Source: Flavobacteriaceae bacterium
GTDB lineage: Bacteria > Bacteroidota > Bacteroidia > Flavobacteriales > Flavobacteriaceae
NCBI GenBank assembly: GCA_024640565.1
Contig: JAHEET010000001.1
Location: forward strand, 308,882-372,881
Length of the DNA: 64,000 bases
Direction: 5' to 3'
Shown piece after piece: positions 51,742-53,430 of this stretch; the stretch's first letter is position 1, and every line of letters starts with the position of its first letter. The position numbers and the translations under genes were made by a program. A model generated the notes under the pieces. The model saw only the letters and a list, made by a program, of their open reading frames with translations, searched no databases and was not told the DNA's origin.

Positions 51742-53430
51742 ATGGAGAATTTTATAGTTTCTGCGCGTAAATACCGTCCTCAAATTTTTGAGGATGTTGT
51801 TGGGCAACAAGCCATTACCAACACGTTAGAAAACGCTATAAAAAATGACCATTTGGCTCAGGCGTTATTATTTACAGGTCCTAGAGGTGTTGGAAAAACA
51901 TCTTGTGCAAGAATCTTGGCCAAGAAAATCAATGAACAAGGCTTAGACACGGCAACAACGGAAGACTTCGCTTTCAATATTTTCGAATTGGATGCCGCTT
52001 CAAACAACTCTGTAGACGATATTCGAAGTTTAACAGACCAGGTTCGGATACCCCCCCAAACGGGAAAGTTCAAAGTCTATATTATTGACGAGGTACACAT
52101 GCTTTCACAAGCAGCTTTCAATGCTTTTTTAAAGACACTGGAGGAACCTCCTGCACATGCTATTTTCATTTTAGCCACCACTGAGAAACACAAAATAATC
52201 CCTACCATTTTATCGCGATGTCAAATTTTCGATTTCAAAAGAATTGGGGTTTTAGATGCAAAAAATTACCTAAAAGTAATCTGTGAAAAGGAAGGCATTA
52301 CTGCAGAAGATGATGCCTTACACATCATTGCCCAGAAGGCCGATGGTGCTATGCGAGATGCCTTGTCTATTTTTGATAGAGTGATTAGTTTTTCTGGAAA
52401 AAACCTAACTCGAGAAGCCGTAACCGAAAACTTAAATGTCTTGGATTACGATACCTACTTTTCGATGACAGATTTGTTGTTGGACAATAAAATTCCCGAT
52501 GTTTTAAATGCATTCAACTGCATTTTAGGAAAGGGCTTTGAAGGCCATCATTTTATCAACGGATTGGCAAGTCATTTTAGAGATTTATTGGTTGCCAAAG
52601 ACAAAGCAACAATTGCATTGTTGGAAGTTGGCGACAATGCCAAAAAGAAATATTTACAACAAGCAGTCAAAGCCTCCATTCCCTTTTTAATGCAAGCCAT
52701 TGACAAAGCCAATGACTGTGATTTAAAATACCGTACCAGCAAGAATCAGCGATTGCTTACAGAATTGACTTTAATGCAGATTGCCTCTATCACTTTTGAT
52801 GGAGAAAAAAAAAAAGCAGCTAACTACATAATTCCAGCCACTTTCTTTCAAGCAGTGATGCCCGCAAAGAAAAAGATGCAACCACCGATTATGGCTCCAA
52901 AGCCTGTGGCAGCAAAAGATCAAAAGGTTGTTGAAAAACCAAAAGCACCAAAGCCCGTTTTACAAAATATTCAAAGACGTACTTCTTCGCTCTCTTTGAA
53001 AAGCGTTCACGAGAAAAAAATAGTGCAAAAATCGGAGGTTGAAGAAAATTTCGACAACCATCCAAAAACGGCTTTTAATGAGGCCAAATTGCAAAAGCTA
53101 TGGAAGGAATATGTGGCTATTTTAAACAAGAAAGGCGAACGTAGTATGGCGTCTATACTTGCGACAGACACTCCAAAATTGGACGAAAATTTCACAATTA
53201 GCTTTAGCCTTCCCAACAAATTAATGCAAGATCAGTTTCAAAAAGGCAAACCCAAATTACTTCATTTTTTACGCGAGAAACTGAACCATTATGGAATTCA
53301 AATTGAGGCCATTTTAAACGAAACCATCGAGAAAAAGTTTGCTTATACTCCGGAGGAAAAATACAATAAGTTGAAAGAAAAAAATCCGCTATTGGCAAAA
53401 TTACGTCAGACCTTTGAGTTGGATTTGTAA
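51742..53430 (+). CDS. dnaX: DNA polymerase III subunit gamma/tau
   Basis: ARKYRPQ, GPRGVGKT, DEVHML, SRC, GAMRDAL; TACATTTG box at 51711-18. Confidence 0.96.
   Translation: MENFIVSARKYRPQIFEDVVGQQAITNTLENAIKNDHLAQALLFTGPRGVGKTSCARILAKKINEQGLDTATTEDFAFNIFELDAASNNSVDDIRSLTDQVRIPPQTGKFKVYIIDEVHMLSQAAFNAFLKTLEEPPAHAIFILATTEKHKIIPTILSRCQIFDFKRIGVLDAKNYLKVICEKEGITAEDDALHIIAQKADGAMRDALSIFDRVISFSGKNLTREAVTENLNVLDYDTYFSMTDLLLDNKIPDVLNAFNCILGKGFEGHHFINGLASHFRDLLVAKDKATIALLEVGDNAKKKYLQQAVKASIPFLMQAIDKANDCDLKYRTSKNQRLLTELTLMQIASITFDGEKKKAANYIIPATFFQAVMPAKKKMQPPIMAPKPVAAKDQKVVEKPKAPKPVLQNIQRRTSSLSLKSVHEKKIVQKSEVEENFDNHPKTAFNEAKLQKLWKEYVAILNKKGERSMASILATDTPKLDENFTISFSLPNKLMQDQFQKGKPKLLHFLREKLNHYGIQIEAILNETIEKKFAYTPEEKYNKLKEKNPLLAKLRQTFELDL
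52805..52815 (+). other. A11 run in dnaX, candidate slippage/frameshift site
   Basis: GGA GAA AAA AAA AAA GCA; A10 gives GEKKKQLTT*, A12 gives GEKKKSS*. Confidence 0.7.

Follow-up and report, generated by a model that had tools for sequence, protein, structure and literature searches.

The run of eleven adenines (A11) in the dnaX gene of the window, by which we mean the whole 64,000-nucleotide stretch of Flavobacteriaceae DNA analysed here, most likely gives a long tau and a short gamma protein from one gene, judging from sequence comparison. We propose, with a probability of roughly 0.7, that A11 is a programmed recoding site at which slippage by RNA polymerase yields tau and a gamma-like protein, and that a hairpin abutting the run probably assists. 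In this scheme RNA polymerase would slip on the all-A:T hybrid over the 11 template T's and generate a ladder of mRNAs that differ in A-run length. Those with 11 or 14 A would encode tau (562 or 563 aa), comprising clamp-loader domains I–III, the linker and the C-terminal domains, while those with 12, 10 or 13 A would reach a stop 2–4 codons further on and encode gamma-like proteins of 360–363 aa made up of just domains I–III. The 8-bp hairpin formed by the nascent RNA behind the run would probably destabilise the upstream end of the hybrid, in the fashion of a terminator hairpin. The transcriptional nature of the slip, the production of gamma in this organism and the action of the hairpin on the polymerase are what we infer from the observations below. 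The slip mechanism is one known from Thermus and predicted for Bacteroidetes in 2013, and the site is ordinary apart from its conserved abutting hairpin; the combination of hairpin and homopolymer is the one aspect worth experiment, the site being otherwise of modest interest.

The dnaX gene and its A11 run

The features referred to throughout are as follows.

51742..53430, + strand: dnaX, tau subunit of DNA polymerase III, 562 aa, zero frame (ORF with NCBIfam, Pfam and structure matches)
52642..52650, + strand: internal control KKK motif, codons 301–303, AAA AAG AAA (ortholog codon comparison)
52785..52804, + strand: 8-bp hairpin CUCUAUCA-CUUU-UGAUGGAG, candidate nascent-RNA stimulator of slippage (folding, synonymous constraint, enrichment)
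52805..52815, + strand: A11 slippery run, codons E355–K358, GAA AAA AAA AAA (direct reading and conservation)
52821..52823, + strand: TAA stop in the −1 frame, predicted to close a 360-aa gamma-like product (mRNA with one A added, or −1 ribosomal shift; sequence and predicted translation)
52829..52831, + strand: TAA stop in the +1 frame, from ATA-A of Ile-Ile, predicted to close a 362- or 363-aa product (mRNA with one A fewer or two A more; sequence and predicted translation)

The 562-aa ORF is dnaX. It scores 692.6 bits against PRK14971 (NCBIfam; cut-off 685) and 380 bits against TIGR02397 (NCBIfam, DnaX N-terminal region), it contains the Pfam domains PF13177 (DNA_pol3_delta2, a delta-prime-like AAA+ module) and PF22608 (DnaX ATPase lid), and a structure search matches it to E. 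coli gamma/tau with E=2e-58. There are exactly 11 A's at 52805–52815, preceded by GGAG and followed by GCAGCTAACTACATAATT, and the zero-frame reading across them is GAA AAA AAA AAA GCA; no other A run in the window is as long. Aligned with E. coli gamma, the run falls where domain III ends, close to the C-terminus of the 1–373 construct that was crystallised, and is followed by a linker rich in Pro, Lys and Ala.

Both shifted frames close within a few codons of the run. Addition of one A leads into the −1 frame, with KKK-S-S-stop, and removal of one A into the +1 frame, with KKK-Q-L-T-T-stop. The predicted products are 562 aa (63.5 kDa) for A11, 360 aa for A12, 362 aa for A10 and 363 aa for A13, and A14 is predicted to restore tau with one extra Lys (563 aa). 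A preliminary description of this DNA had placed the run at the boundary between the clamp-loader domains and the linker, had read an in-frame tau of 562 aa and had predicted products of about 360 aa from the gain or loss of one A; the alignment with E. coli domain III, the single ORF at 51742–53430 identified as dnaX by NCBIfam and Pfam, and the products of 360 and 362 aa with stops 2–4 codons on agree with all three statements. Its reading of the run as a source of both tau and gamma is, on the comparative data that follow, supported.

Conservation of the run across the phylum

As A/T runs of at least 9 are abundant in this genome (2.28 Mb, 35% GC), a count of such runs within the window would say little about chance, and chance was ruled out instead through conservation. 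An unbroken A10–A13 is present in all 24 orthologs fetched from the window's genus; in each of them K356 and K357 are both AAA, and none has a run below A10. An internal control is provided by the KKK motif at codons 301–303, which sits 55 codons upstream of the run: of the 21 genus orthologs with this motif, 20 have it broken by AAG. Elsewhere in the dnaX orthologs of the genus 83% of Lys codons are AAA. The preliminary description had suggested comparing the A run with AAG codons in orthologs, and the outcome of that comparison is strongly positive. The stops appear to be constrained as well, in that the first Ile codon, which creates the TAA of the +1 frame, is ATA in 24/24 genus orthologs, while only 21% of the Ile codons in these genes are ATA.

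Sampling of the order comprised 30 orthologs (the 24 of the same genus and six from other families) and then nine further families. A run of A9–A13 was found in 30/30 of the former and in 8/9 of the latter, that is in 38 of 39 orthologs, at the homologous place and with stops near in both shifted frames. The sole exception is a reduced genome of 0.34 Mb whose dnaX ends near residue 346. Across the phylum, 64 of the 91 genera sampled have A9–A11 at residues 354–411, 46 of them in a one-ORF form and 18 in a two-ORF form. Of the 46 one-ORF genera, 42 have a stop no further than 12 codons away in each shifted frame, and in all 46 the −1 frame stops within nine codons. Among named Bacteroidota loci the run is present in 69 of 79; the majority of the ten that lack it are Bacteroidales, including Bacteroides and Bacteroidaceae. 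Where the site is present its length is always at least 9, and mostly 9–11. The residue preceding the run (E, A, V, L, S, Q and others), the base that follows it and its codon phase all vary, and the run itself is constant.

These comparisons bear directly on the reading in which the run has no function and merely reflects an AT-rich genome, the start of a Lys-rich linker written in the preferred AAA, and stops that arose by chance. The 35% GC content, the 83% share of AAA among Lys codons and the presence of 83 length-9 A/T runs inside long ORFs would all suit such a reading, but we regard it as very improbable indeed. The run persists phylum-wide while flanking residues and codon phase change, AAG interrupts the KKK motif nearby, and the split genes of relatives described below require a slip. 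Moreover, runs of this length are depleted from coding sequence: only 13 of the 49 runs of at least 10 in the genome lie inside long ORFs, although such ORFs make up about 88% of it, and there are only three runs of at least 11 inside long ORFs genome-wide. A chance origin of the run is rejected on the comparative data, which indicate that the run is maintained by selection at the nucleotide level.

If so, the making of a short DnaX would have been kept across the whole phylum, which is relevant to the long-standing question of why gamma is made. A recoding note would be due for dnaX in the annotation of Flavobacteriaceae and of most Bacteroidota.

Relatives with tau in a shifted frame, and the nature of the slip

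The window has a single 562-aa ORF, and the two-ORF layout, in which the zero frame stops right after the run, is absent from it. Many relatives do have this layout (L023–L026, L029, L031, L034 and L036 among the loci sampled, and Flavobacterium species). In what we term the −1 type, the zero frame stops 0–6 codons past the run and the C-terminus of tau continues in the −1 frame, as in L023 and L024 of the window's own genus and in Flavobacterium, Chryseobacterium and Myroides; within the window's genus the −1 type occurs in both A13 and A11 forms. A minority are of the +1 type, as explicit translation confirmed in each case: L029, Flavobacterium sp. YO12, a Paludibacter MAG and L191. Two-ORF dnaX is also found in complete one-contig genomes (G028, G161, G173 and G055), although some of the +1-type or odd-length cases were taken from drafts or MAGs and may reflect misassembly of the homopolymer. 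Flavobacterium provides a series with identical flanks in which A9 puts tau in the +1 frame, A10 puts it in the −1 frame and A11 leaves it in frame. Similarly, of 80 environmental contigs that carry an identical upstream hairpin, 50 are in frame (A10 or A11), 18 are of the −1 type and five of the +1 type, the other seven being too short for frame typing.

Tau is essential, yet in these relatives it is encoded in a shifted frame, and so slipping at the run must occur in living cells of this lineage, with a substantial frequency. An essential protein can, it would seem, depend on slipping, and the dnaX genes so often called 'frameshifted' or split in this phylum are not pseudogenes.

Close relatives, and environmental contigs whose flanks are identical, differ in run length by single A's, which raises the further possibility of a heritable switch in the DNA, in which replication slippage alters the run length between lineages and so tunes or flips the in-frame product; long homopolymers are indeed mutable at replication. 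We think it improbable that this is what the run is for. Such a switch alone cannot explain species, complete genomes included, in which the two-ORF form is fixed, because tau is essential and an out-of-frame allele would die without slipping at the level of expression. It may nevertheless operate alongside slippage as a slow means of tuning.

A more serious alternative, though still an unlikely one, is a −1 ribosomal frameshift of the E. coli kind, in which the ribosome would slip back on A_AAA_AAA/G and meet a stop two codons on to give gamma, from an mRNA of uniform sequence. The E. coli dnaX cassette consists of the heptamer A_AAA_AAG, an upstream SD-like element and a downstream stem-loop. 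The window shares with it the gene, the predicted outcome of tau plus gamma, and an A-rich slippery sequence. An X_XXY_YYZ heptamer lies in the right register, as A_AAA_AAA followed by G in the window and as exactly A_AAA_AAG in relatives with A10-G. As in E. coli, the only tRNA-Lys of the genome has the UUU anticodon, the condition that makes the heptamer shifty there, and the sequence would therefore be expected to be slippery for ribosomes too. A −1 shift is also what most of the two-ORF relatives require.

The remainder of the cassette is not evident. Folding of the 80 nt that follow the run is no more stable than that of shuffled sequences (z=+0.65), there is no hairpin starting 3–9 nt after the run in the window nor any enrichment of such hairpins over 69 taxa (p=0.26), and a scan of 52600–53000 against Rfam 15, with E up to 10, returned only chance miRNA and snoRNA matches far below their cut-offs. 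An SD-like element about 10 nt upstream is likewise absent, the only candidate being the GGAG at 52801–52804, which is 4 nt before the last heptamer and lies in the 3' arm of the hairpin. The gamma of the window would also differ from that of E. coli in losing the part of domain IV that the latter keeps, as the site is some 60–70 residues earlier.

Several further observations point to polymerase slippage rather than to the ribosome. The RNA:DNA hybrid in a transcribing polymerase is 9–10 bp long, and a ribosomal slip site needs only 7 nt; wherever the site occurs the run has at least 9 A's, which matches the length of the hybrid and exceeds what a ribosome needs. Genes of the +1 type favour a ladder of transcript lengths, because a −1 ribosomal shift cannot rescue them. 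We also count for polymerase slippage the retention of stops in both shifted frames, that of the +1 frame through the rare ATA codon. Finally, a hairpin that touches the slip site would have been unfolded by a ribosome sitting on the run, and its presence there suggests that it acts on the polymerase. Some −1 ribosomal shifting on the run is plausible all the same, and may add to polymerase slippage, or replace it, in the in-frame and −1-type genes.

Among two-ORF forms the −1 type is far commoner than the +1 type. This excess fits an insertion-biased polymerase slippage and a −1 ribosomal shift alike.

The abutting hairpin and comparison with known systems

The segment 52785–52804 folds into an 8-bp hairpin at −7.8 kcal/mol, with a gap of 0 nt to the first A of the run. 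It is identical or near-identical in the window's genus, in Flavobacterium and in several other genera of Flavobacteriaceae. The preliminary description had noted the absence of a stimulatory hairpin downstream, which is borne out by the folding and the survey of 69 taxa described above, but it had overlooked this conserved hairpin immediately upstream.

Three kinds of evidence suggest a role for the hairpin. Synonymous constraint was assessed over the 292 columns of conserved amino acid among the first 358 codons of the 24 genus orthologs, and the fraction of sequences using the top codon reaches 0.98 in an eight-column window at codons 348–356, the highest of the region, against a mean of 0.71. 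Covariation gives modest support. Among 32 distinct Flavobacteriaceae sequences the stem pairs at 84%, against 81% in shuffles (1 of 500) and 33–64% in slid registers, and there are five double-change cells in the stem, for example A-U to C-G and C-G to G-C in Aequorivita-like sequences.

The third is enrichment beyond the family. Here we asked how often a hairpin ending 0–2 nt before the run falls in the lowest decile of the sequence's own in-gene controls, the upstream sequences being non-homologous. This was so for 15 of the 36 Bacteroidia taxa in the first sample (p=7e-7), and the enrichment was repeated in 58 further named loci (21/58, p=8e-8). The corresponding figure for the other classes of the phylum in the first sample is 6 of 34, which is not significant. 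The mean energy of hairpins dips sharply at offset −1/0 relative to the run. A terminator scan found nothing.

Taking these observations together we tentatively suggest, with rather less confidence than we attach to slippage itself, that the slip site of Bacteroidia dnaX is a two-part module. In this model a nascent-RNA hairpin 0–2 nt before an A9–A13 run would act in a terminator-like manner to set the frequency, and perhaps the direction, of RNA-polymerase slips; the tau:gamma ratio would be determined in this way, and genomes could move freely among the in-frame, −1 and +1 layouts. Were the hairpin to work in this way, it would offer a simple and testable rule by which cells determine how efficiently the polymerase slips.

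A precedent for such an arrangement is the Roseiflexus IS630 element, where a stem-loop directly 5' of the slippage motif has been proposed to open the hybrid at its upstream end (Penno et al. 2015 PNAS, as presented in PMC5009743). Both sites would place a nascent-RNA stem-loop immediately 5' of the motif in a terminator-like geometry. The Roseiflexus motif is a heteropolymeric T5C5 that slips only with its stem-loop and loses one base, whereas most two-ORF dnaX genes need the gain of a base. Because a long homopolymer should slip on its own, the dnaX hairpin could only modulate the process. If the proposal is true, dnaX would be the first cellular housekeeping gene with stem-loop-assisted transcriptional slippage, which is so far known from one IS element.

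As regards the run itself, the nearest parallel is dnaX of T. thermophilus, in which the polymerase slips on A9 to give gamma and each shifted frame contains a stop (Larsen et al. 2000 PNAS, as summarised in PMC1088944 and PMC5009743). The two genes are alike in having tau in one ORF, an A run of at least 9 inside dnaX and near stops in both shifted frames; they are also alike in that the short product comes from transcripts whose run length differs from the template by other than a multiple of 3, which for the window is our proposal from sequence. They differ in phylum and in the length of the run (A11 here, A9 in Thermus), and the run of the window lies at the very end of domain III. The conserved 5' abutting hairpin is a feature of the window's site. 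The preliminary description had likened the site to that of Thermus, and the site type does match; what it missed was that the same mechanism had already been predicted for Flavobacterium.

That prediction was made by Antonov, Coakley, Atkins, Baranov and Borodovsky in 2013 (PMC3711429), who reported 17 two-ORF dnaX genes, nine of them with A10, and proposed transcriptional realignment. Their GeneTack cluster for Bacteroidetes/Chlorobi (Fig. S3) includes Flavobacterium johnsoniae, F. psychrophilum, Cytophaga, Capnocytophaga and Chlorobium, and both Flavobacterium species have A10. The site is homologous to that of the window and the mechanism proposed there is the same, but in their genes the zero frame encodes gamma and tau needs the slip, whereas in the window tau is in frame, for which reason the window's dnaX would escape programs that search for frameshifts. 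In-frame forms, +1-type forms and the upstream hairpin are not part of their account, nor did the literature searched yield a report of any of these in the phylum, or a paper on the DnaX products of Bacteroidota.

A shortened DnaX can also be reached by another route, as in Caulobacter crescentus, where ClpXP shortens the protein (bioRxiv 10.1101/2022.11.10.516041). The outcome there, a short form without the C-terminal domains, resembles that predicted here, but the route is post-translational, and the window sequence argues neither for nor against proteolysis as an extra route.

The F. johnsoniae site of the 2013 cluster reads TTTGATAGA-A10-GTTGAGCAAT, which is the module found in sister genera. 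DnaX of the window's genus is about 77% identical to that of Flavobacterium.

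Loci lacking the A run

Ten of the 79 named Bacteroidota dnaX loci compared have no A run of at least 8 nt at the dnaX site (L172, L179, L181, L187, L200, L207-L209, L214 and L216), and seven of these ten are from Bacteroidales, including Bacteroides and Bacteroidaceae. Judging from this sequence comparison, the site seems to have been lost in the Bacteroidales branch, where gamma may be made by another route or may not be made at all.

The run is also absent from the dnaX of a reduced genome of 0.34 Mb from the same order as the window (L037, G040:C1:272548-274400), in which the open frame is only about 346 aa. 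A search of this genome for the tau C-terminus found none, and from its sequence the gene seems to code for a gamma-sized protein only.

Interrupted dnaX loci

In another relative (L032, G038:C42) dnaX reaches an A10 run and the contig ends 10 nt later, with the tau C-terminal match situated on a separate contig (C3:3060-3581); the assembly is probably broken at or near the dnaX homopolymer.

The dnaX of Chryseobacterium ginsenosidimutans THG 15 (L197, NZ_JANUCO010000001.1) is broken at an A10 run and is of the -1 type, the tau C-terminus lying in the -1 frame. A second frame break lies 5' of the run and limits the open N-terminal frame there to just 61 codons. Because this second break is absent from strain JCM 16719 (L188), it may represent a sequencing error or a pseudogene.

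Genomic setting of the window dnaX

Only two tRNA-Lys genes were found in the whole genome holding the window (G000). Each carries the anticodon UUU and no CUU species was seen; E. coli likewise has the UUU species and lacks CUU.

Besides dnaX, just two A runs of at least 11 nt are found within long ORFs of this genome, both outside the window:

Long A runs within other ORFs of G000
C13:40757-40767, A11 run, 35% along a 772-aa ORF
C11:294971-294982, A12 run, within a 115-aa ORF

The two runs may mark further sites of slippage or phase variation; alternatively, the ORFs that hold them may be spurious.

Within dnaX, 75 nt 5' of the run, there is a near-consensus (11/12) sigma-70-like sequence:

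52700-52729 (+), TTGACA-18-TAAAAT

As shuffles give an expected 0.8 such matches per region, and the consensus scored differs from that of Bacteroidota promoters, this is probably a chance match.
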